Below are positions 13,882 through 36,466 of a stretch of DNA of 64,000 bases, piece after piece. Both the position numbers and the translations under genes were made by a program. This DNA comes from a virus. Position 1 is the first letter of the stretch, and each line of letters begins with the position of its first letter. Where the stretch lies: IMG/VR virus record IMGVR_UViG_3300021962_000073, positions 1 through 64,000 of that record; one strand, written 5' to 3'. The notes below the pieces were generated by a model. That model did no database searches. It was not told the origin of the DNA and worked only from the letters and a program-made list of their open reading frames with translations.

Positions 13882-14525
13882 CGATTACATGATGAATGAA
13901 ACGAAAAACTTCCCAGCCCTCTTCGATGAGATTTCTGCAATTTGTAATGCTTGGTTCTACAAGCCAGTAGAAGCTTTGCAATACATTGAAACTCATATTG
14001 AAGAATATGAAGGCACTCGGTGTCTTCGCGATTATTTTGAATTTGTTAAATTTGCAAAATCAGGAGTTTGATATGAACGTCGAAAATCAAATGAATGTCC
14101 GTCGTGAAGTTCAAAGTGTTGTTGATTTGTTCAACAAAGTTCATGACAAAAAATACAACGGATATGCCTACGGTGCTGGATATCTTGGCTCAATGTTGAG
14201 TGAAGTTATTTCGAATCTTCCTAAGCGTAAGCGAGAGGTCTATGTCAAGCAATTGATGCGTACAATTCAGGAAAATGTATGATGGCTTTTCTTAGCGCAC
14301 TTTTTTCTGTGATTTTGTGGAAGATGGCTCAAAAAGATTTTGAGAATGGAAGAAATGGCTCCGGATGGGCGGCTTTGTTTCTAAGCGCAGCCAACGGAGC
14401 CTGTGCTGCTCACCTAATTCTAAATTAGAGTCTAATTCCTCTTTGACGCAATCTTTCTTCGTAAGTCTTTGCTCTACCTTCGGCGATACCATTAAATACT
14501 ATCTTGATAATGTCTAGAATTTTTT

Positions 14526-14681
14526 TCATCGGGAAAATCCTTTTCTGTTGTGGTCAAGTTGACGAAGGATTCTCTCTACATCCACAATATCCTGAGCATA
14601 TTTGAAATGACATTCATTGAAAGTTTTTTCGTCATATTGTCTTATTTTTAGAGAGATATAATCTAAAATTTTCTTAATCAT
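14526..14681 (-). CDS. DUF3563-like small protein, probably late
   Basis: AQDIVDVERILRQLD motif; minus-strand TATAAATA ~14732-14739 upstream. Confidence 0.5.
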   Translation of the reverse strand: MIKKILDYISLKIRQYDEKTFNECHFKYAQDIVDVERILRQLDHNRKGFSR

Positions 14682-14998
14682 TTTTGACCTTTTGGGTTTA
14701 TTTTGTAATTGATGAGGTTTTGCCTCATTTGTATTTATATTGCACTGCAACAAAGGAATAAATAATGCACATTCAAGATGACGCATTGAAAGCCTTGTGG
14801 CAGGCTCTAAAGCTGTTAGAAAAAGCTGAAGCTAGCCACTATCTTTTATTAAGAATGCGTGAACTAATTTCTCTAGCTGAAGAAGAAATGGATGAATCTG
14901 ATGATTGATAAAATCAAGCGAAAGATCGCAAATTTGTACTACGATTACAATTTCAATTTTACATTCATCGAATGGATTTTTATTTTAGGAATTTTAAC

Positions 14999-15136
14999 AT
15001 GGTTACTAAGCGTCGCAATTCGGTAGCGAAGGATCTTCGTACACCTAAGTATAGTATGCGTGTGGTGCCGCTCGTAAAAATATACAATCGTAAAAAAGAG
15101 GAACGAAAGATGATTCGTGAACAGAGATATGAGTGA
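14999..15136 (+). CDS. 45-aa basic protein, possibly ArfA-like
   Basis: AGGA RBS; MVTKRRNSVAKDLRTPKYSMRVVPLVKIYNRKK; not in ORF track. Confidence 0.6.
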   Translation: MVTKRRNSVAKDLRTPKYSMRVVPLVKIYNRKKEERKMIREQRYE

Positions 15137-15476
15137 AAGAGAATATCTGGAAAAATGTGATGGATTAGCTTTTATTCCGGGTGAAGAGGGTGAGACTGAG
15201 ATTAGGTTCATGACATTTCATGAACCCATGAAAGGAAAAATTCAAGTATCAAGTTCTGGTGGTGTATACTATCATGTTTGTTTTTTGAAGTATGATGAAT
15301 CGGACAATTTAGTTTTCGATGATTCGTTTGATGCGATTTTTATGGACCCACTAGAATATATTAAAGGTCTGGTTGGTACGAATATTTACGGAACTATGAT
15401 CAAAAAGCGGGAAAATTCTGATGCTTGGTTTCAAAAATACTTGACAGAGATAAAAGAAAAAGTTAAACTATCTTAA
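15129..15476 (+). CDS. hypothetical protein
   Basis: coupled ORF. Confidence 0.55.
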   Translation: MSEREYLEKCDGLAFIPGEEGETEIRFMTFHEPMKGKIQVSSSGGVYYHVCFLKYDESDNLVFDDSFDAIFMDPLEYIKGLVGTNIYGTMIKKRENSDAWFQKYLTEIKEKVKLS

Positions 15477-15491
15477 ATTCGATATGGAGTC

Positions 15492-15797
15492 GTGATGAAA
15501 ATGATTGATAATGTTAATGCAAACACTTTCGCTGATCAAAAAGCTAGGGATTGGTTGGTTGGCGTTCTTCGTGAACAGGCTGTCACTGTTACTTTCACAA
15601 AACAAGATGGCACTGAACGTGTAATGAATTGTACCTTGTATGAAGGTGATATTCCTGTCGAACAAGCACCAAAAGGATCGAGTCGTTCTAAACCAACCGA
15701 AGCTCTTGCTGTTTTTGACATTGAAGCAAAAGGTTGGCGTTCATTTCGTTGGGATGCAATTAAAGAAGTTAAATTTACACTGGGTCAAGCAAAATGA
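15492..15797 (+). CDS. WYL-like SH3 beta-barrel protein
   Basis: VTFTKQDGTERVM.CTL...VFD....WRSFRWD. Confidence 0.7.
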   Translation: MMKMIDNVNANTFADQKARDWLVGVLREQAVTVTFTKQDGTERVMNCTLYEGDIPVEQAPKGSSRSKPTEALAVFDIEAKGWRSFRWDAIKEVKFTLGQAK

Positions 15798-16093
15798 AAA
15801 AGTACATTGTTGAAACTATTTCCACTTTTCGTAATGTTCATGTAATTGAAGCTGAGAATGAGGATCATCTTTTGCAAATTGCAGAAGAGTGTGATCCAAA
15901 TTGGGATGATTGGCTAGGTTCAATTAAGCATGATGTAACTGAATACTCTGAAGAAGCAATCTCAAAGTATAAGACACGAAAATATTTTTGGAATGGTTCC
16001 GTTTTTGTTGATGAAGAAGGATATGTTTGCTATCGAGATGTTGACGGAACAGTTCGAAAATCTAGCTCACATAAAATTGATTTAAACCCTTGA
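15794..16093 (+). CDS. hypothetical protein
   Basis: coupled ORF. Confidence 0.6.
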   Translation: MKKYIVETISTFRNVHVIEAENEDHLLQIAEECDPNWDDWLGSIKHDVTEYSEEAISKYKTRKYFWNGSVFVDEEGYVCYRDVDGTVRKSSSHKIDLNP

Positions 16094-16118
16094 CAAAGAG
16101 AAAAAAAGCATATATAGT
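16090..16118 (+). promoter_or_regulatory. sigma70 promoter of tRNA-array leader
   Basis: TTGACA 16090-16095, 17 nt, TATAGT 16113-16118; predicted +1 ~16125 equals the ATG. Confidence 0.75.
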
Positions 16119-16124
16119 ATTACT

Positions 16125-16241
16125 ATGATTAAAACCAAACATTATTTTAGACCCATAACACGATCAACATCGTGGCAGCCATCCTTTTATCTGGAGATTG
16201 GTAATGCCTGCGATAATAAGATTTTAGGGGTTTGTGTATAG
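16125..16241 (+). CDS. putative attenuator leader peptide (38 aa, all 20 amino acids)
   Basis: MIKTKHYFRPITRSTSWQPSFYLEIGNACDNKILGVCV*; last codons overlap antiterminator arm. Confidence 0.7.
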   Translation: MIKTKHYFRPITRSTSWQPSFYLEIGNACDNKILGVCV

Positions 16242-16272
16242 TTGTAGCATAGTAGAAATTCACACAAACCCC
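16227..16272 (+). promoter_or_regulatory. antiterminator helix
   Basis: GGGGTTTGTGT 16227-16237 perfectly complementary to ACACAAACCCC 16262-16272. Confidence 0.75.
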
Positions 16273-16300
16273 AGACACCAAAAGGTCTCTGGGGTTTTTT
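16266..16300 (+). terminator. intrinsic terminator (attenuator)
   Basis: AAACCCCAGA-c-ACC-AAAA-GGT-c-TCTGGGG followed by T6. Confidence 0.85.
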
Positions 16301-16309
16301 ATTAGTTGT

Positions 16310-16323
16310 TGTTCTTTAAAAAT
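16310..16323 (+). promoter_or_regulatory. boxA-like antitermination site
   Basis: TGTTCTTTAAAAAT vs rrn boxA TGCTCTTTAACAAT. Confidence 0.6.
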
Positions 16324-16335
16324 TTAGTTTTCTAT

Positions 16336-16409
16336 TGGGGTATGGTGAAATGGCATCACACTCGATTTTGATTCAAGTATTCTTGGTTCGATTCCAAGTA
16401 CCCCTGCCA
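16336..16409 (+). tRNA. tRNA-Gln(TTG)
   Basis: cloverleaf, loop TTTTGAT, TTCGATT, CCA. Confidence 0.9.
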
Positions 16410-16416
16410 AAATTTA

Positions 16417-16509
16417 GGAAGTGTGGCAGAGCCCGGTTTAATGCAATGCTCTTGAAAAGCATCGGACGTTAAAAGCGTTCCGTGAGTTCGAATCTCACCG
16501 CTTCCACCA
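16417..16509 (+). tRNA. tRNA-Ser(TGA)
   Basis: ATGCT-CTTGAAA-AGCAT, long variable arm, CCA. Confidence 0.92.
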
Positions 16510-16517
16510 AATTTAAT

Positions 16518-16609
16518 GGAAAGATGGATGAGTGGTTTAAATCGGCACCCTGCTAAGGTGTTGGTTTGCGAAAGCAGGCCCGTGGGTTCGAATCCCACTC
16601 TTTCCACCA
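16518..16609 (+). tRNA. tRNA-Ser(GCT)
   Basis: GCACC-CTGCTAA-GGTGT, long variable arm, CCA. Confidence 0.92.
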
Positions 16610-16615
16610 AACAAT

Positions 16616-16710
16616 GGTAGGTAGCACTGGTGTGCGGCTGAGTCTTATAAGCTCGGGAGATCGGTCAGATGGGCTGAAACGGAAGAGTTCGAATCTCTTA
16701 CCTACTACCA
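16616..16710 (+). tRNA. atypical tRNA with anticodon TAT (Ile?)
   Basis: CTGAGT-CTTATAA-GCTCGG, tiny D-loop, long variable arm, T-arm, CCA. Confidence 0.75.
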
Positions 16711-16717
16711 AATTCAT

Positions 16718-16795
16718 GCACAGGTGGCAGAGTGGCCCAATGCAAGAGTCTGCAAAACTCTAAAACCGTCGGTTCGAATCCGACCCTGTGCTCCA
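16718..16795 (+). tRNA. tRNA-Cys(GCA)
   Basis: AGAGT-CTGCAAA-ACTCT, U73, CCA. Confidence 0.92.
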
Positions 16796-16886
16796 GTTGT
16801 AAAAAAACAACAACAAAAAAGTTGTTGACATAGTTTGTGGAATCTGTATAATAGATTCTGTTGATGATGTAAATGCTCTTTAAAAA
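16795..16886 (+). promoter_or_regulatory. internal tRNA-array promoter with palindrome and boxA
   Basis: AGTTG-N8-CAACA 16795-16812, TTGACA 16825-16830, TATAAT 16847-16852, TGCTCTTTAAAAA 16874-16886. Confidence 0.8.
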
Positions 16887-16898
16887 CTGTTGTTCGAT

Positions 16899-16973
16899 GC
16901 ACCGTTCGTCTATCGGTTAGGACGCTAGCCTTTCACGCTGGAAAGACGAGTTCGATTCTCGTACGGTGTACCA
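16899..16973 (+). tRNA. tRNA-Glu(TTC)
   Basis: CTAGC-CTTTCAC-GCTGG, CCA. Confidence 0.92.
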
Positions 16974-17105
16974 TATTGAAACACACTTACACTGTGGCGC
17001 TTTGTCCGTCCCTGGTTTAAAACGGGATATCGCATAAACAGTTCAAGCCCCGGTCGCTCCGGTCTGCTGTGTAAAAGAGAGACGGTCGAGTGTGTTTCAA
17101 TATGG
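16971..17105 (+). ncRNA. unknown structured RNA 1 (closed by CCATATTGAA.../...TTCAATATGG)
   Basis: ~18-bp terminal stem CCATATTGAAACACACTT/GAGTGTGTTTCAATATGG, internal helices, no ORF. Confidence 0.6.
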
Positions 17106-17179
17106 GCCTATAGCTCAGAGGTCAGAGCAGTGAACTCATAATTCATTGGTCGTAGGTTCGAAACCTACTGGGCCCACCA
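17104..17179 (+). tRNA. tRNA(CAT), probably Ile2 (lysidine)
   Basis: GTGAA-CTCATAA-TTCAT, ileX-like body, CCA. Confidence 0.85.
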
Positions 17180-17185
17180 AAATTC

Positions 17186-17259
17186 GCGGGTATAACTTAG
17201 TGGTAAAGTAACTGGCTTTTAACCAGTAAATCCGAGTTCGATTCTCGGTGCCCGTACCA
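17186..17259 (+). tRNA. tRNA-Lys(TTT)
   Basis: ACTGG-CTTTTAA-CCAGT, CCA. Confidence 0.92.
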
Positions 17260-17264
17260 AATAT

Positions 17265-17351
17265 GGATGCGTAGCCAAATGGTTGACGGCAGCGGGCTGT
17301 AAACCCGTGACATAAGAAACGCTGGTGGTTCGAATCCATCCGCATCCACCA
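17265..17351 (+). tRNA. tRNA-Tyr(GTA)
   Basis: GCGGG-CTGTAAA-CCCGT, long variable region, CCA. Confidence 0.92.
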
Positions 17352-17360
17352 AGTTTAGAT

Positions 17361-17437
17361 GGGGGTCTAGCGAGTAACATCGCTCAGTCTTAAACGACAG
17401 CAAAAGAATGTCGAGAGGACATCCAATTGCGCCCCTT
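17361..17437 (+). ncRNA. unknown tRNA-sized structured RNA
   Basis: GGGG/CCCC closing stem, AGCGA/TCGCT, GTC/GAC, ATGTC/GACAT hairpins; no TTC loop or CCA. Confidence 0.45.
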
Positions 17438-17441
17438 AATC

Positions 17442-17516
17442 GGTTCCATAGTATATCGGCGAGTATAGCGCCCTGTCACGGCGCAGGAACGGGTTCGAGT
17501 CCCGTTGGGACCGCCA
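17442..17516 (+). tRNA. tRNA-Asp(GTC)
   Basis: GCGCC-CTGTCAC-GGCGC, CCA. Confidence 0.92.
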
Positions 17517-17522
17517 GAATGA

Positions 17523-17598
17523 TCCGGAGTAGCACAGCGGTAGTTGCAGCGCACTGTTAATGCGCCTGTCGTTGGTTCGATCCCAACCTCCGGAGCCA
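17523..17598 (+). tRNA. tRNA-Asn(GTT)
   Basis: GCGCA-CTGTTAA-TGCGC, CCA. Confidence 0.92.
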
Positions 17599-17600
17599 AA

Positions 17601-17677
17601 GCCCTCTTACTCCAATTGGTAGAGAGGACGGTCTTAGAAGCCGTAAAGTCTCAGTTCGAATCTGAGAGAGGGCACCA
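17601..17677 (+). tRNA. tRNA-Leu(TAG), short variable loop
   Basis: ACGGT-CTTAGAA-GCCGT, CCA. Confidence 0.85.
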
Positions 17678-17800
17678 TATTGAAATATTCTGAGTAGCTA
17701 CAGCGGAACAACTGATTGCTTGCCAATTCTAGACAAAGCAAGGATCAGCCGTGAAGAGGGGCTATCGCGGATTCAAGTGCCACAGAATGTTTCAATATGA
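17675..17800 (+). ncRNA. unknown structured RNA 2 (homolog of tmRNA intervening segment)
   Basis: terminal stem plus core aligning to 35624-35740 with compensatory changes. Confidence 0.75.
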
Positions 17801-17922
17801 CCATATTGAAGCGCATAATCGATAGTATACTCAGAACAGGAGTGACTGCCTGGTGCGTATACTTGTAGAGAGATGTAAAAAGGCCCCGCTGGTCACGGTT
17901 ATCTCAGTGCGTTTCAATATGG
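17801..17922 (+). ncRNA. unknown structured RNA 3
   Basis: CCATATTGAAGCGCAT/GTGCGTTTCAATATGG stem, AGTATAC/GTATACT, CAGG/CCTG, possible GTGAC/GTCAC pseudoknot. Confidence 0.6.
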
Positions 17923-17932
17923 TTCTGCAAAA

Positions 17933-18055
17933 TTGATGATGGCAAATCCGCCCAACCATCAGGGCGACTACTTAACCCTATTGAACGTCTTGCCAACGAG
18001 GAGTGGAGAATAGGGGAGTCCAAGAGGACTCTTAAACGGGTGATGGTAACCATAC
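17933..18055 (+). ncRNA. possible structured RNA 4
   Basis: TGATGG/CCATCA with loop CGCCC pairing GGGCG; CCCTATT/AATAGGG; GAGTCC/GGACTC. Confidence 0.45.
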
Positions 18056-18061
18056 CTTTTC

Positions 18062-18139
18062 GGGCCTCTAGCTCATGTTGGTTAGAGCAGCGAACTCATA
18101 ATTCGTTGGTGCGCGGTTCGACTCCGCGGGGGCCCACCA
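18062..18139 (+). tRNA. tRNA(CAT), probably Ile2
   Basis: GCGAA-CTCATAA-TTCGT, CCA. Confidence 0.85.
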
Positions 18140-18152
18140 TATATAATGTATT

Positions 18153-18227
18153 GGGCTGCTAGTGATAATGGGAGCACGCCGCCTTTGCACGGCGGAGGTT
18201 GGAGTTCGATCCTCCAGCGGTCCACCA
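18153..18227 (+). tRNA. tRNA-Ala(TGC)
   Basis: G3:U70, CCGCC-TTTGCAC-GGCGG, CCA. Confidence 0.92.
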
Positions 18228-18235
18228 AGTTTTTC

Positions 18236-18310
18236 GCCCCTATAGTTAAATGGCTATAACAGTTGCCTTGTAAGCATCAATTCCTAGTTCGATTCCAGGT
18301 GGGGGCACCA
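18236..18310 (+). tRNA. tRNA-Thr(TGT)
   Basis: loop CTTGTAA, CCA. Confidence 0.9.
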
Positions 18311-18317
18311 AGTTTTA

Positions 18318-18395
18318 CCGAGTGTAGGATAGTCCGGTTATTCCGCCTGCTTTGGGAGCAGGAAATCGTGTGTTCGAATCACACCACTCGGACCA
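18318..18395 (+). tRNA. tRNA-Pro(TGG)
   Basis: CCTGC-TTTGGGA-GCAGG, CCA. Confidence 0.92.
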
Positions 18396-18403
18396 GTTTC
18401 TAT

Positions 18404-18482
18404 TCCGCAGAACCCGAGCAAGGTGCATGGGCTTGACTGTTAATCAATGGTTAGCAGGGTTCGATTCCCTGATGCGGAGCCA
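18404..18482 (+). tRNA. tRNA-Asn(GTT), divergent second copy
   Basis: TTGA-CTGTTAA-TCAA, T-arm, CCA. Confidence 0.8.
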
Positions 18483-18490
18483 ATTTCAGA

Positions 18491-18564
18491 TGCGGGTTGG
18501 AGAAAAGGTATCTCGGGAGTCTCATAAGCTCCAGTTGGTGGTTCGATTCCATCATCCGCTACCA
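18491..18564 (+). tRNA. tRNA-Met(CAT), initiator-like
   Basis: 1:72 mismatch, loop CTCATAA, CCA. Confidence 0.8.
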
Positions 18565-18570
18565 AGTTAC

Positions 18571-18645
18571 GGTTCAATGACGTAGAAAGATGCGTACCGG
18601 TTTCATAAGCCGAGGAGAGTGGAGCGTTACCACTTTGAACCACCA
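18571..18645 (+). tRNA. atypical tRNA(CAT)
   Basis: GGTTCAA/TTGAACC acceptor, loop TTCATAA, T-loop AGCGTTA, CCA. Confidence 0.65.
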
Positions 18646-18654
18646 GGAGATATT

Positions 18655-19395
18655 ATGAATATTGACGAAATTGTTAAAGTACCATATACAACACAACCAA
18701 GAATGATACGAAATACTGGTGAAGTTTTTAATAAAACTCCCGATAAAAAATATTTTGAAGAGAAGAAAATTCAATTAGATAAATTTGGTTATGATTTGTA
18801 TGGTATGAATATACCTTGCATTACAGAAAAAGTTATTGAAAAATGTGAATCTTTTTTAGGTAAACCTGTAACTGGTGATATCGTAGATTTCGCAATGAAC
18901 TTTGAAGAAGATATTGCGATTATGCACCATGGTGTTTTGTCTGCAATTTGTTTTTGTTTTCCCAGTTCTTGGATTCCTTTTTACGGTCTAGACAAAACAC
19001 TGGAAGAAATACACCGACCTGTGGCTGATGGTGATCATCTTCGGCGTGTAAGTTCGAAACTTACAAAGACAATGGCAGATCCTATTCTAGGAAGTTTTCT
19101 TAGATATGTATGGACTATTACAAAAGTTCCAGATTTAAGTAATCATCCTGAAGTAAAACAAAATTATGATGATGCAGAATTAACATTCGATAATCTCTAT
19201 TTTAGATTGGAGAAACAAACAACATTACCATTGAATGATGGTAAGACTAGTTTGTTTTTTGTGAAAGTTGAAGTTGTTCCATTAAAAAATGTTTGGTCAC
19301 CACTAATTAAAGAGAGTATTGATTCTATGAGTGATGCGATTATTCAATATAAAAATTTAAAAGAAATTAAAACGGTCCTTAGTTCAATGGATTAG
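18655..19395 (+). CDS. DUF3445 / heme-dependent oxidative N-demethylase alpha-like protein
   Basis: EEDIAIM..LSAICFCFPSSW..LEEIHRPV..R..WTI..FRLEKQT; AGGAG RBS before 18655. Confidence 0.65.
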   Translation: MNIDEIVKVPYTTQPRMIRNTGEVFNKTPDKKYFEEKKIQLDKFGYDLYGMNIPCITEKVIEKCESFLGKPVTGDIVDFAMNFEEDIAIMHHGVLSAICFCFPSSWIPFYGLDKTLEEIHRPVADGDHLRRVSSKLTKTMADPILGSFLRYVWTITKVPDLSNHPEVKQNYDDAELTFDNLYFRLEKQTTLPLNDGKTSLFFVKVEVVPLKNVWSPLIKESIDSMSDAIIQYKNLKEIKTVLSSMD

Positions 19396-19448
19396 AATCC
19401 CTTGCTACGAACGAGGAGACGGGAGTTCGATTCTCTCAGGACCGGCCA
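19373..19448 (+). tRNA. tRNA-Arg(ACG)
   Basis: CCTTG-CTACGAA-CGAGG, CCA; overlaps end of upstream CDS. Confidence 0.88.
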
Positions 19449-19453
19449 ATTAT

Positions 19454-19528
19454 GCCCCGTTAGCTGAGATGGATTAGCAACGTCTTGATAAGGCGTAGAG
19501 AATGGATCGATACCATTACGGGGTACCA
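19454..19528 (+). tRNA. tRNA-Ile(GAT)
   Basis: ACGTC-TTGATAA-GGCGT, T-loop ATCGATA, CCA. Confidence 0.85.
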
Positions 19529-19533
19529 TCAAT

Positions 19534-19608
19534 CTCGGTGTAGTGTTAATGGCAGCACGAGAGTCTCCAAAACTCCAAGATGCGGTTCGAGTCCGTACAC
19601 CGAGGCCA
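19534..19608 (+). tRNA. tRNA-Trp(CCA)
   Basis: GAGT-CTCCAAA-ACTC, G73, CCA. Confidence 0.9.
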
Positions 19609-19625
19609 TTTTATAGGAGTGAGAT

Positions 19626-20096
19626 ATGTACAACAAAAAAATTAATTTAAATGAAGTGAAAGCATTCATCGATAGTTGTGGTCCTAATACCAAAGTTTAT
19701 CTTGGATGCGATTCTGAGAAAGTTAAAATTAATGGTGTATGGCATGCGGATTATATTATAGCCATTGTTGTACATATGAACAGCAAGCATGGTTGTAAAA
19801 TTTTCGGTCAAATTACTCGTGAACGTGATTATGACCAAGCACGAAATAAACCAAGAATGCGATTGATGAATGAAGTATATAAAGTTGCCGAGATGTATCT
19901 TGAATTAGCGGCAATGATTGATGTTGAAATTGAAGTTCATCTTGACATCAATCCAAATGAAGAGTATAATTCAAATATTGTAATCAATGAGGCGATTGGC
20001 TACATAAAAGGAATGTGTAATGTTGTTCCTCTTGTAAAACCAAATGCTTTTGCGGCTTCATATGCAGCCGATAGATTGAAAAGTTTAGTAGCTTAA
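19626..20096 (+). CDS. RNase H-like YkuK (DUF458) family protein
   Basis: KVYLGCDS, R.RLM.EV, EVHLDIN, AS.AAD. Confidence 0.8.
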   Translation: MYNKKINLNEVKAFIDSCGPNTKVYLGCDSEKVKINGVWHADYIIAIVVHMNSKHGCKIFGQITRERDYDQARNKPRMRLMNEVYKVAEMYLELAAMIDVEIEVHLDINPNEEYNSNIVINEAIGYIKGMCNVVPLVKPNAFAASYAADRLKSLVA

Positions 20097-20098
20097 TT

Positions 20099-20175
20099 GC
20101 GGGTATGGTGTTTAATGGCTAGCACGACAGCCTTCCAAGCTGACAGTATCGGTTCGAATCCGATTACCCGCTCCA
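20099..20175 (+). tRNA. tRNA-Gly(TCC)
   Basis: CAGC-CTTCCAA-GCTG, U73, CCA. Confidence 0.92.
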
Positions 20176-20192
20176 TATTTTTATATAAATGA

Positions 20193-20729
20193 ATGGAACT
20201 TAAATCTTTTGTCAAACATTATGAAAATGTATTGAGCCCCCAAACTTGCGAACGAATAATCCAAGAATTTGAGAACAATCGTTCACATATCACTCAATAC
20301 GATAATGAGCATTACAAGTTTGATCAGTTAGATTTAAATACATCTGGCAATCAACTTTTAGCGAAAGCATTTATACAACAGGTCGTACCATATCTGAAAA
20401 ATTATATTAGTTTGTTGAGTGTTGAACCTTATGTTAAGATTCGAGGTTTTGAAAATGTACGCATCAAAAAATATCTGAAAGGATCAGATTATAAATTCAA
20501 AACTCATGTTGATGTTGATGATAAAGATTCGGCAGTTCGATATTTGATTTTTATTTTGTATTTAAATGATAACAATGGATGTACAACTTTTCCTAATCTA
20601 GGATTGTCTTTCAAACCAAAACAAGGAAGTATGATTATGTTTCCTCCGTTTTGGATGTTTCCTCATTCAGGTGAAACACCGACAGACAATGATAAGTATA
20701 TTATGATGAGTTGTCTTCACTATAGTTAA
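20193..20729 (+). CDS. 2OG-Fe(II) oxygenase
   Basis: HVD..R.L..ILYLND..FPP.W.FPH..KY. Confidence 0.85.
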   Translation: MELKSFVKHYENVLSPQTCERIIQEFENNRSHITQYDNEHYKFDQLDLNTSGNQLLAKAFIQQVVPYLKNYISLLSVEPYVKIRGFENVRIKKYLKGSDYKFKTHVDVDDKDSAVRYLIFILYLNDNNGCTTFPNLGLSFKPKQGSMIMFPPFWMFPHSGETPTDNDKYIMMSCLHYS

Positions 20730-20730
20730 A

Positions 20731-20820
20731 GCAGGAGTGGAGAAATCGGTAAACTCAGTGGACTTAAAATCCACCGGCACTAAAAACGCCTTGCGGGTTC
20801 AAGTCCCGCCTCCTGCACCA
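20731..20820 (+). tRNA. tRNA-Leu(TAA)
   Basis: GTGGA-CTTAAAA-TCCAC, long variable arm, CCA. Confidence 0.92.
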
Positions 20821-20824
20821 CAAC

Positions 20825-20899
20825 CTGACCGTAGTTAAATGGATATAACATGGGTCTTCTAAACCCAGATTCCAGGTTCGATTCCTGGCGGTCGGGCCA
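20825..20899 (+). tRNA. tRNA-Arg(TCT)
   Basis: TGGGT-CTTCTAA-ACCCA, CCA. Confidence 0.92.
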
Positions 20900-20900
20900 C

Positions 20901-21161
20901 CTATACTACAAACTTAACGTATAGTGTGCAATCACCATCAGTTTCTCCCAGAATGGTGATTCTTCCATTTTCAATTTCTACATTTTCTTCTGCGATTTCT
21001 TCAACTTTCTCAGCACTTACGAATAGGCTCTGTACCATCGTTAACTTATAAACGCCTGTCCCTCCGTTTACAACAGAGTTCATAATATCAACTTCATTTT
21101 CATTAAAGAAACCATCTGTTGCTGTAATATCGTCAAATAAAAAATCGTCTACGCTTGTCAT
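20901..21161 (-). CDS. hypothetical acidic protein
   Basis: AAGGA RBS, ORF. Confidence 0.6.
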   Translation of the reverse strand: MTSVDDFLFDDITATDGFFNENEVDIMNSVVNGGTGVYKLTMVQSLFVSAEKVEEIAEENVEIENGRITILGETDGDCTLYVKFVV

Positions 21162-21171
21162 TTTTATGTCC

Positions 21172-21483
21172 TTAGGTTGGTGTGTCTTCTACGATGTTGA
21201 AATTCTTTCCTGATGAAACCACGCAATAAAGATCCTCGGAGATTTTTTCGACAACGGTCCACGTTTTAGTTCTTTTATTTAGAAAAAATATTACTACCGA
21301 TTCGACTATAGTTCTATTATTTGTCGATCTAACTGTTTCTCCGGCAGCAAAAGGTTTTTCATTAAATTCTACCATCACTGCCGTTAAATCTTTCAAATTA
21401 CCACATTCTACTGGTAATAACCTAGTTTGAGCATTTGCGGTTAAAGAGGTTAGAAGAGCCATTAATACTATTAGATATTTCAT
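21172..21483 (-). CDS. hypothetical secreted protein
   Basis: signal peptide MKYLIVLMALLTSLTANA. Confidence 0.6.
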   Translation of the reverse strand: MKYLIVLMALLTSLTANAQTRLLPVECGNLKDLTAVMVEFNEKPFAAGETVRSTNNRTIVESVVIFFLNKRTKTWTVVEKISEDLYCVVSSGKNFNIVEDTPT

Positions 21484-21522
21484 GATCAAGCCCTTATGAA
21501 AAGTATTTGATTAGTTATGTAG

Positions 21523-22041
21523 TTACCATTTTCCAGCACTTCTTCCATACTCATAAAACCAAACGAAAAATTTAATTGCAACAGTAATGCTTATGATAAG
21601 TAAAGTTCCCCAAAAGGCATTTTCTATAAATTTCTTTCTTCTTTGGGCTTGATCTCTAATTGCTTTCTCTCTTTCTTCTCTAACTTTTTTTCGGATAGCT
21701 ATGAATTCTCGATATCCTTCTTGACTTAGATGCTGTAAAGCACCATAATAAAACATGTGTTGAATTTCCGCTTCCATCTCTCTAAGTTTTTGTTGAGCGG
21801 CATAAATGTCCATCGCTTCAGCCGTATCACTTTTAGCGAATCCAATTTTTTGAAAGATGCCAGGTTTTTTCTGATGATTAGGATCTCTCGACTTGTTTAT
21901 GAAGTCTTGTAGTTGACCTGCTGAGTCTGCCCACTTGTTTAGTTGTCCGAAAATATCTTGTACCTCTCTTCCAACGGCAATCGCCTTCTTGATTCCATTG
22001 AAGGCGGCAGTTGTTGCTGCAAGAAGTGTTACGGGATCCAT
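21523..22041 (-). CDS. hypothetical membrane-anchored protein
   Basis: MDPVT.LA N-terminus, coiled coil, C-terminal TM. Confidence 0.7.
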   Translation of the reverse strand: MDPVTLLAATTAAFNGIKKAIAVGREVQDIFGQLNKWADSAGQLQDFINKSRDPNHQKKPGIFQKIGFAKSDTAEAMDIYAAQQKLREMEAEIQHMFYYGALQHLSQEGYREFIAIRKKVREEREKAIRDQAQRRKKFIENAFWGTLLIISITVAIKFFVWFYEYGRSAGKW

Positions 22042-35360: not shown

Positions 35361-35549
35361 ATGTGGGTTTGGATATTATCCATCACATTATTAGGTACCA
35401 ATCCTGAACATTCAAGAATCGCTAAATTTGAGACTAAAGAAGATTGTCAGAAAGCACTGATTGCTAAAAGAAAAGAATATGAACTAAAAGGTAGAGAAAT
35501 GGTTGGTCATTGTTTTTATGGAAGAACAGATTCTAAAGGTTGGTGGTAA
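35361..35549 (+). CDS. hypothetical protein
   Basis: ORF with hydrophobic N-terminus. Confidence 0.55.
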   Translation: MWVWILSITLLGTNPEHSRIAKFETKEDCQKALIAKRKEYELKGREMVGHCFYGRTDSKGWW

Positions 35550-35560
35550 TAAATAAAGCT

Positions 35561-35908
35561 ATGATCGTATGAAGTAGATCGAAAGGTGTTCTGGACGGCG
35601 GTTCGATTCCGCCCAGGTCCACCAGTAAACTCTTTGAGTGACTACACTGGAACAACTGCAACACTTGCCAAAGTCGACTAAAGCAAGAACCAGCCAGGAA
35701 GTAGGGTCACCGTGATTTCGAGTATCGCAGAGAGTTTACTAATGGGCCTGACCTGGTTTCGACAGGGCAATAAGTAGAGACATGGACGATCCGACACAGA
35801 GAGTCGTAAAAAGTAAATTCAATAAACGCAAATGAAGAAATCTTTGCATTAGCCGCCTAAACACGGCTTAGGGTTTCGGTGGGTTTCCTCGTAACAGAAT
35901 AACCCACC
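35561..35908 (+). ncRNA. ssrA: circularly permuted (two-piece) tmRNA
   Basis: 3' half with T-arm and CAGGTCCACCA (ends 35624) precedes 5' half GGGCCTGACCTGGTTTCGAC (35744); G3:U70; tag 35828-35860 ANEEIFALAA*. Confidence 0.92.
35624..35740 (+). ncRNA. structured RNA forming tmRNA intervening segment (homolog of 17675-17800)
   Basis: AGTAAACTCT/AGAGTTTACT closing stem, shared core, T-arm GTGAT-TTCGAGT-ATCGC. Confidence 0.75.
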
Positions 35909-35929
35909 ATCACTACTAGGAGGTATCAA

Positions 35930-36466
35930 ATGAAAAGTTTAACTTTTCTTAGTGTGATTTTTTTTATGCTTATAGTGAAAAACGTTTACGCTATACCAAA
36001 TACGATTCTCTTCAGGGATCTTACCGCAGAAGCGCAGAAGCAGGTCGTATGTTTAGCAGATAACATCTATTTTGAAGCAGCCAGCGAATCTCATAACGGC
36101 AAAATGGCTGTTGGATTTGTCACACTAAATCGCGTTTCAACAGGAAACTATCCAAATACAGTTTGCGGAGTTGTACATCAAAAGATAAGAGGAATTTGTC
36201 AATTTTCTTGGTATTGTGATCCAACCACTGCTAAGAAAAGGTTGACAATAAGATCCACTTCATTGTATAATGATATCTTGGATTTGGCAGTGTTTCTTGC
36301 GGTTTATTATCATTTTATAGAAGATGTTTCCAAAGGAGCCACACATTTTCATTCCGTCAGAGTTAATCCGAGATGGAAATTACAAAAAACTAGTCAAATA
36401 GGACAACACATATTTTATAGAAATAGATACGAAAGAATTAATAAAGAAAAATTTATTTTGGCATAA
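35930..36466 (+). CDS. cell wall hydrolase (SleB/Hydrolase_2)
   Basis: CLA.NIYFEA, V.LNRV...P.TVCGVV.Q, CQFSW, GATHFH, IG.HIFY. Confidence 0.9.
   Translation: MKSLTFLSVIFFMLIVKNVYAIPNTILFRDLTAEAQKQVVCLADNIYFEAASESHNGKMAVGFVTLNRVSTGNYPNTVCGVVHQKIRGICQFSWYCDPTTAKKRLTIRSTSLYNDILDLAVFLAVYYHFIEDVSKGATHFHSVRVNPRWKLQKTSQIGQHIFYRNRYERINKEKFILA

Follow-up and report, generated by a model that had tools for sequence, protein, structure and literature searches.

A leader with an all-amino-acid peptide and a putative attenuator switch at the head of a phage tRNA array

In the amino-acid operons of enterobacteria, the trpL, hisL, pheL and leuL leaders and the multivalent thr and ilvGMEDA leaders act as transcription attenuators, in which completion of a leader peptide leads to termination and stalling of the ribosome leads to read-through. 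For arrays of transfer RNA (tRNA) genes, the nearest published biology found is the trn operon of Anabaena sp. PCC 7120, whose L-array of 26 tRNAs is induced under translational stress (PMC8421152). It is controlled when transcription initiates, by way of direct repeats that span the -10 box and the start site and of the repressor TrcR (PMC8421152; PMC10272220), and neither of these two papers mentions a leader, an attenuator or a terminator for the array. Phage tRNAs have been tied to escape from tRNA-cleaving defences (PMC10264068, PMC11464382, PMC11555353), and the element described here bears on why phages carry large tRNA sets and how these are controlled. This element is a short leader between a promoter at 16090 and the end of a terminator at 16300 of the window, i.e. 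the whole stretch of 64,000 nucleotides (nt) analysed, which is the first 64 kb of the 78-kb IMG/VR virus record IMGVR_UViG_3300021962_000073 (completeness estimate, 48%). It heads a tRNA array and, judged from its sequence and that of its relatives, is probably a ribosome-mediated (leader-peptide) transcription attenuator that senses general decoding. A literature search retrieved no description of a leader-peptide attenuator for tRNA genes, although most subscription journals were outside its coverage and absence is not proven.

All parts of the leader and of the stretch that follows it, as far as 16886, lie on the + strand. The sigma-70-type promoter P1 (16090..16118) consists of TTGACA at 16090-16095, a 17-nt spacer and TATAGT at 16113-16118, with a score of 11/12 in the promoter scan. 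The seventh base past its -10 box, at the predicted +1, is the first base of an ATG (16125) with no Shine-Dalgarno sequence ahead, i.e. a leaderless start. This ATG opens the leader open reading frame (ORF; 16125..16241), which has 38 codons followed by TAG and encodes MIKTKHYFRPITRSTSWQPSFYLEIGNACDNKILGVCV. It contains no codon runs; instead, 20 different amino acids are spread over 31 distinct codons, with 19 of the amino acids used by codon 30 and Val appearing first at codon 36. Promoter, start codon and composition had been described in these terms in the initial annotation, and each is present in the DNA. Another candidate leader, a mini-ORF with a Shine-Dalgarno site, in a different frame and just ahead of the antiterminator arm described below (16204-16227; GGAG at 16193, ATG at 16204; MPAIIRF and a stop, with the rare codons ATA-ATA-AGA), was rejected because its stop is lost in the close relatives L002/L006 and because a ribosome stalled there would already cover that arm (region 2).

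The end of the ORF is embedded in a switch made of two mutually exclusive helices. Codons 35-38 hold region 2, the 5′ arm of the antiterminator (GGGGTTTGTGT, 16227..16237), which ends 1 nt before the stop codon. Region 3, the 3′ arm (ACACAAACCCC, 16262..16272), is its perfect complement, and seven of its nucleotides (16266-16272) also belong to the 5′ arm of the intrinsic terminator (16266..16300). The latter reads AAACCCCAGAcACC-AAAA-GGTcTCTGGGGTTT followed by a T-run, with a stem at 16266-16297 and a run of six U at 16295-16300; a simple terminator scan missed it because of one C-C mismatch in the stem. The predicted energies are -19.6 kcal/mol for the terminator and -18.2 kcal/mol for the competing antiterminator hairpin, and a perfect helix of 11 base pairs reaching the terminator arm arises in 1 of 5000 dinucleotide shuffles (P 2e-4). 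Sequence and folding both confirm the earlier claim that this helix and the terminator exclude each other. A boxA-like element (16310) and tRNA-Gln (16336) follow the terminator directly, again as first annotated.

The arrangement suggests the following scheme. RNA polymerase would start at the A of the ATG at 16125, and a ribosome would load on the leaderless 5′ AUG and translate the 38 codons. When decoding is fast, the ribosome would reach the UAG at 16239 and cover region 2, leaving region 3 to join the downstream arm; the terminator would form and the transcript would end at about 16300. When the ribosome is held up at any of the codons as far as about codon 30, or was never loaded, region 2 would pair with region 3 once the latter is made. 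The terminator arm would then be sequestered and transcription would continue past boxA into tRNA-Gln, two tRNA-Ser, a tRNA with UAU anticodon and tRNA-Cys, and probably further. Since the products are tRNAs, the loop would amount to negative feedback on decoding capacity; starvation, loss of host tRNAs and anticodon nucleases are candidate triggers. Taken one step further, the leader would be a general gauge of decoding speed, with shortage, cleavage or non-charging of the tRNA for any of about 19 amino acids (e.g. by host anticodon-nuclease defences or host tRNA decay) switching replacement tRNAs on and restored decoding switching them off, a reading to which an even chance is given.

Viewed singly, these features are each only moderately improbable, with P about 0.002 for all 20 amino acids per 38-residue ORF and about 2e-4 for the helix. 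Within one window, the all-20 composition is unusual, yet not decisive for a feature noticed after the fact. The frequency of all 20 amino acids in 38-residue windows of this genome, a figure whose calculation had been proposed when the leader was first annotated, is 0.11-0.15%, and the leader ORF is the sole all-20 case among 150 ATG ORFs of 30-50 residues, for which about 0.2 is expected by chance. An event of this expectation is not very rare, and this is the point that speaks for a chance ORF and a chance helix beside an ordinary terminator, an explanation on which the relatives bear directly.

The source phage can be classed as a divergent T4-like myovirus of about 36% G+C, marked by gp6/gp7-type baseplate proteins. 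In the cultured-phage collection there is no near match to the window, with distant matches at the level of tRNAs only, and no homologue of the 99-residue protein encoded upstream. The samples that gave look-alike contigs are freshwater and riverine. The close relatives, L002/L006, L004 and L005, are near-identical and offer too little variation to test much. A distant sample was taken by way of an unrelated neighbour, the array protein encoded at 19626-20093 (phrog_11311), which has 582 IMG/VR relatives; 80 of these 582 loci were examined, and leader homologues were sought in them by iterated nhmmer with the leader DNA. For a second sample, IMG/VR was scanned with the helix pattern GGGTTTGTG-N15-45-CACAAACCC alone, blind to ORF and tRNA, which makes it a fair test because neither feature entered the selection. 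A phmmer search with the 38-residue peptide against 1.8 billion representatives returned two long repetitive proteins, judged irrelevant.

Leader homologues occur in 32 of the 80 loci, and all 32 stand ahead of an array of 12-32 tRNAs, usually at a distance of 8-125 nt. They represent 25 distinct leaders, from IMG/VR and JGI contigs, and about 16 peptide lineages, with peptides of 31-48 residues and an identity of about 20-45% between lineages. The close relatives also keep the leader ORF, which in L006 carries an in-frame 3-nt deletion and a replaced block (NKIL to SGQ). In one distant locus (L077, 2784-2983), a homologue of 48 residues with 19 amino acids is followed by a protein-coding gene and the next tRNA lies 383 nt downstream, so that the device is not always directly fused to tRNAs.

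Start signals are retained in two forms. The -35 and -10 boxes of P1 are conserved in relatives, and in about 10 lineages the ATG stands exactly 6 nt past a TATAAT-like box, the sequence of these 6 nt being variable; in other lineages GGAG is followed after 6-8 nt by ATG, GTG or TTG. An exchange between leaderless and Shine-Dalgarno starts makes sense only if the ORF is translated.

Composition is retained as well. All 20 amino acids are found in eight lineages, one of them a group of 31-residue peptides, and 19 in five lineages; in three or four the number is 17-18. Given how often this phage uses each amino acid, the probability of a complete set is 0.0025 at 38 residues and 0.00019 at 31 residues, and when an all-20 ancestor is subjected to random replacement at the observed divergence, the full set is retained in 0.5-2% of trials per lineage. 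Selection for amino-acid completeness of the leader peptide is demonstrated by this comparison. In addition, the codons of the leader engage 19-20 of the phage's 21 anticodon species (P ~0.001).

A variation within the 31-residue leaders (L059-L064) may be recorded here: Glu and Gln are swapped between positions 10 and 13 (..KECPQY.. versus ..KQCPEY..), with a single Gln kept, and at the RNA level the swap is an exchange of G...C for C...G.

The same switch might respond to another signal, namely to the mere loading and movement of ribosomes (as affected by a shut-off of translation, by toxins or antibiotics that target ribosomes, or by the supply of 70S ribosomes for leaderless starts), with the identity of amino acids or tRNAs being secondary. 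Such a signal would fit the predicted default of read-through without a ribosome, the commonness of leaderless starts in the leader family and the response of the Anabaena tRNA array to general translational stress (PMC8421152). However, it leaves unexplained why all 20 amino acids are retained in drifting peptides as short as 31 residues and why 19-20 of the 21 phage tRNA species are covered, and is considered unlikely.

Covariation of the antiterminator was assessed over its 11 pairs in a trimmed MAFFT alignment of 26 sequences. Antiterminator cells are paired in 86.7% of cases and 7 of the 11 pairs have changed on both sides, values reached in 0/500 shuffles; when the partner is slid by 1-3 columns, pairing falls to 36-58%. 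Examples of compensated arms are UUUAUGU/ACAUAAA, UAC/GUA, UCC/GGA and UUGAA/UUCAA. In all 25 leaders, the start of region 2 lies 11-28 nt ahead of the stop codon and its end falls at -9 to +7 relative to that codon, and region 3 overlaps the terminator arm by 6-7 nt, the two hairpins being similar in energy. A terminator is found in every relative, and the base of its stem covaries. Minimum free energy (MFE) folds of the nascent RNA, up to the terminator loop, contain the antiterminator in 24 of the 25 leaders, and those of the full RNA contain the terminator in 20. RNAalifold applied to a global MAFFT alignment recovers the base of the terminator only; the ORF part aligns poorly, and the leader's 5′ region is not alignable across lineages.

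The sample drawn by helix pattern gives a concordant picture. The scan yielded 48 stretches, including 27 new ones with a G-rich stem and a T-run just downstream, and tRNA genes come next in all 27 (within 120 nt in 26). An all-20 ORF ends at the helix in 25 of them, with several new peptide lineages of 31-42 residues. A chance ORF beside a chance helix is refuted by these comparative data, i.e. by the return of the feature across dozens of relatives that have diverged and among loci selected regardless of ORF, and by a helix that covaries and passes the shuffle test, and retains practically no probability. Diverged ORFs of full amino-acid diversity and covarying helices upstream of tRNA arrays in related phages were what the initial annotation had proposed to look for, and both were found. 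Sequence comparison establishes the anatomy of the leader, its conservation, its amino-acid completeness and the covariation of the switch helix, and the central proposal, that the position of the ribosome would choose between antiterminator and terminator, finds support in the start signals of relatives, their 19-20 amino acids, the position of the stop codon and the compensatory changes.

The peptides also have short motifs in common (TR..SW, YR..D..SW, GVCV) and often two Cys, as might be expected if P1, ORF and terminator formed a self-contained unit, i.e. a separate small gene for a peptide of 31-48 residues with a function of its own, with the terminator serving as mere insulation and leakage being constitutive. 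The strong promoter placed right after the terminator in about half of the relatives, where the tRNAs need no P1, is in line with this idea. On the other hand, the peptide motifs coincide with covarying RNA hairpin arms, and composition stays complete in peptides whose identity has fallen to about 20-45%; moreover, a competitor helix that covaries and invariably ends at the stop codon would be superfluous for a plain terminator, and the unit always heads a tRNA array. A small gene of this type is accordingly given little probability.

Additional structure lies inside the ORF. A small hairpin, CACGAU-CAAC-AUCGUG (16159..16174, codons 12-17), competes with the 5′ arm of a central hairpin, H1 (16169..16214), which MFE and centroid folding both predict in the window, L002 and L004. 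The small hairpin follows the scheme CACGAN-4 nt-N'UCGUG, with U-A, C-G or A-U as sixth pair depending on the lineage, and is a candidate pause or folding element. More generally, the ORF interiors of the 25 leaders fold better than shuffles (mean z -2.0). Between the window and L004, the leader transcript of 176 nt shows 4 differences (2.3%), 1 of them synonymous, for 7-12% in the flanking genes, the promoter spacer and tRNA-Gln.

Such properties would suit a small regulatory RNA (sRNA) of about 176 nt, extending from P1 to the terminator and acting in trans, possibly with a dual function like rnTrpL/peTrpL, transcription of the tRNAs then being a by-product of leakage. It would have an AU-rich single-stranded 5′ end, internal hairpins and a U-tailed terminator, an architecture that we take to resemble overall that of Hfq-type sRNAs. 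The structured ORF interior favours this explanation, as does the island of nucleotide conservation between close relatives (2.3% compared with 10-12% in the flanks, with the 1 synonymous change). Yet an sRNA has no reason to keep an ORF, start signals and all 20 amino acids, its 5′ region is not conserved across lineages and no Rfam family matches the leader, so that as sole explanation it is quite improbable. Given the strong conservation in close relatives, the 176-nt RNA may nevertheless have a second role, and an sRNA role and an attenuator could coexist.

Several points weigh against the attenuator interpretation or restrict its reach. Firstly, the conservation just described indicates a constraint on the leader RNA beyond what a mere test peptide would need. 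Secondly, some lineages have lost one to three amino acids (17 remain in L075, 18 in L046 and 18 in L078). Thirdly, no conserved pairing of any region 1 with region 2, i.e. no anti-antiterminator, was found in relatives, and an untranslated transcript is therefore predicted to read through. Fourthly, a near-consensus promoter, often with boxA, lies between terminator and first tRNA in about 17 of the 32 relatives, in which, to judge from this arrangement, the leader can only add to tRNA transcription and is not its sole gate. Likewise, in the window a second promoter (P2, 16825) and a third (19942) would serve most of the array, and strict gating would apply to the first five tRNAs only. That the promoter at 16825 imposes this limit had been recognized from the outset, correctly, and the similar promoter in about half of the relatives extends the point. 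In riverine metatranscriptome contigs, the leader has a depth of 2-7 with promoter and terminator both bridged, which may reflect DNA or read-through and says nothing on starts, ends or expression. Finally, we infer from the DNA where transcription starts, that the ORF is translated, in which direction and how strongly the switch responds and which stresses act as triggers, and efficient leaderless translation in the host is assumed.

One element of the initial annotation fails. It had noted that Val occurs only within the antiterminator arm, where it could not be sensed, and had linked this to the lack of tRNA-Val in the array. However, the array also lacks tRNA-His and tRNA-Phe, yet His and Phe occur early in the leader. 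Furthermore, the closest relative, which has the same GVCV ending, carries tRNA-Val, and in other lineages Val is placed earlier in the peptide.

Downstream of the terminator, the boxA-like element TGTTCTTTAAAAA (16310..16322) is an exact match. The boxA consensus TGYTCTTTAAMAA has two exact matches in the 64 kb, each directly ahead of a tRNA cluster; when one mismatch is allowed, at least two hits are seen in 52/100 shuffles, and the sequence alone is weak evidence. No promoter-like site was detected by the promoter scan in the 35-nt gap between the end of the terminator (16300) and tRNA-Gln (16336), and the first five tRNAs (16336..16795; Gln-UUG, Ser-UGA, Ser-GCU, a long-arm UAU tRNA and Cys-GCA, identified with ARAGORN and Rfam) would therefore depend on read-through. 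P2 and its boxA (16825..16886) comprise TTGACA, 16 nt and TATAAT, scoring 12/12, with boxA at 16874-16886, and would serve the tRNAs from Glu onward. The third sigma-70 promoter, also a perfect 12/12 (19942-19970), falls within ORF 19626-20096, in its 3′ part, and precedes tRNA-Gly (20099) by about 130 nt. A module made of a GTTG...CAAC hairpin, a near-consensus promoter and often boxA follows the terminator in a series of relatives (L016, L017, L018, L023, L024, L026, L009, L013, L022, L044, L050 and L081); in the window the same module stands after the fifth tRNA, at 16796-16886.

Some members of the array are atypical. The UAU tRNA (16616-16710) has 95 nt, an acceptor stem of 8 base pairs and a long variable arm; ARAGORN assigns it to Ile, and Rfam matches it to tRNA-Sec at a sub-threshold 30.6 bits. 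L002 and L004 have a 100% identical copy, though neighbouring tRNAs differ, and its combination of a class II body with a predicted AUA-reading anticodon prompts the question with which amino acid it is charged. The two tRNA-Ser genes (16417-16609) are 28% and 45% different from their counterparts in the closest relatives L002/L004, with the flanking tRNA-Ile and tRNA-Glu identical, which looks like cassette-like replacement of single tRNA genes. Inserts of 120-130 nt between tRNA genes (16972-17103, 17677-17800 and 17800-17922) are closed by the same long stem, CCATATTGAAAC...GTTTCAATATGG, which begins on the CCA end of the preceding tRNA; they have no Rfam match. In L027, an array tRNA at position 125 has a UUA anticodon and is reported by ARAGORN as 'tRNA-Stop', a possible ochre suppressor. 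Elsewhere in the window, at 35532-35951, ARAGORN predicts a permuted two-piece transfer-messenger RNA with the tag ANEEIFALAA.

If the proposed mechanism holds, phage tRNA arrays would be a regulated response to the state of translation and not a constitutive supplement, classical attenuation would be extended from one amino acid to all, and a compact natural sensor of decoding capacity, of less than 200 nt, would be available for study.

Comparison with known systems places the leader close to, and yet apart from, several of them. Like the Anabaena array, the phage array would be tied to impaired translation, with control by a repressor in Anabaena and, as proposed, by leader and terminator in the phage. 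With antitermination of the rrn type, mediated by boxA and Nus factors, the locus shares the boxA consensus after the terminator (16310) and after P2 (16874), binding of NusB/NusE being only putative; lying downstream of the leader terminator, the boxA at 16310 cannot suppress it and would only protect the tRNA transcript afterwards. T-box riboswitches also sense tRNA charging through a terminator and an antiterminator, but they are untranslated, with direct binding to a single specific tRNA; at E up to 1, Rfam gives no T-box match in 14000-22000, and it offers no family for the leader, NsiR1 on the terminator being its single match and at chance level (E 0.79). As in the pyrBI and erm/cat leaders, the distance between ribosome and polymerase or a ribosome stalled in a short ORF would remodel the downstream RNA; however, pyrBI senses polymerase pausing that depends on uridine triphosphate and erm/cat leaders sense drug-bound ribosomes at peptide motifs, whereas the conserved property of the phage leader is composition. 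In its proposed working the leader resembles the trp/his/thr class, with which it shares a promoter-proximal short ORF, an intrinsic terminator and an exclusive antiterminator that has its 5′ arm where the ORF ends. In structural terms, what characterizes a leader-peptide attenuator is found here, namely a start signal after the promoter, a terminator before the genes, an exclusive and selected helix and an ORF that ends on its arm. Unlike in trp, no conserved 1:2 anti-antiterminator was found for the leader, and its untranslated RNA is predicted to read through. Unlike the classical attenuators in general, the leader lacks runs of any single regulatory codon, with the 20 amino acids used once to a few times each, and it is phage-encoded, starts leaderless in this lineage and would control tRNAs in place of biosynthetic enzymes.

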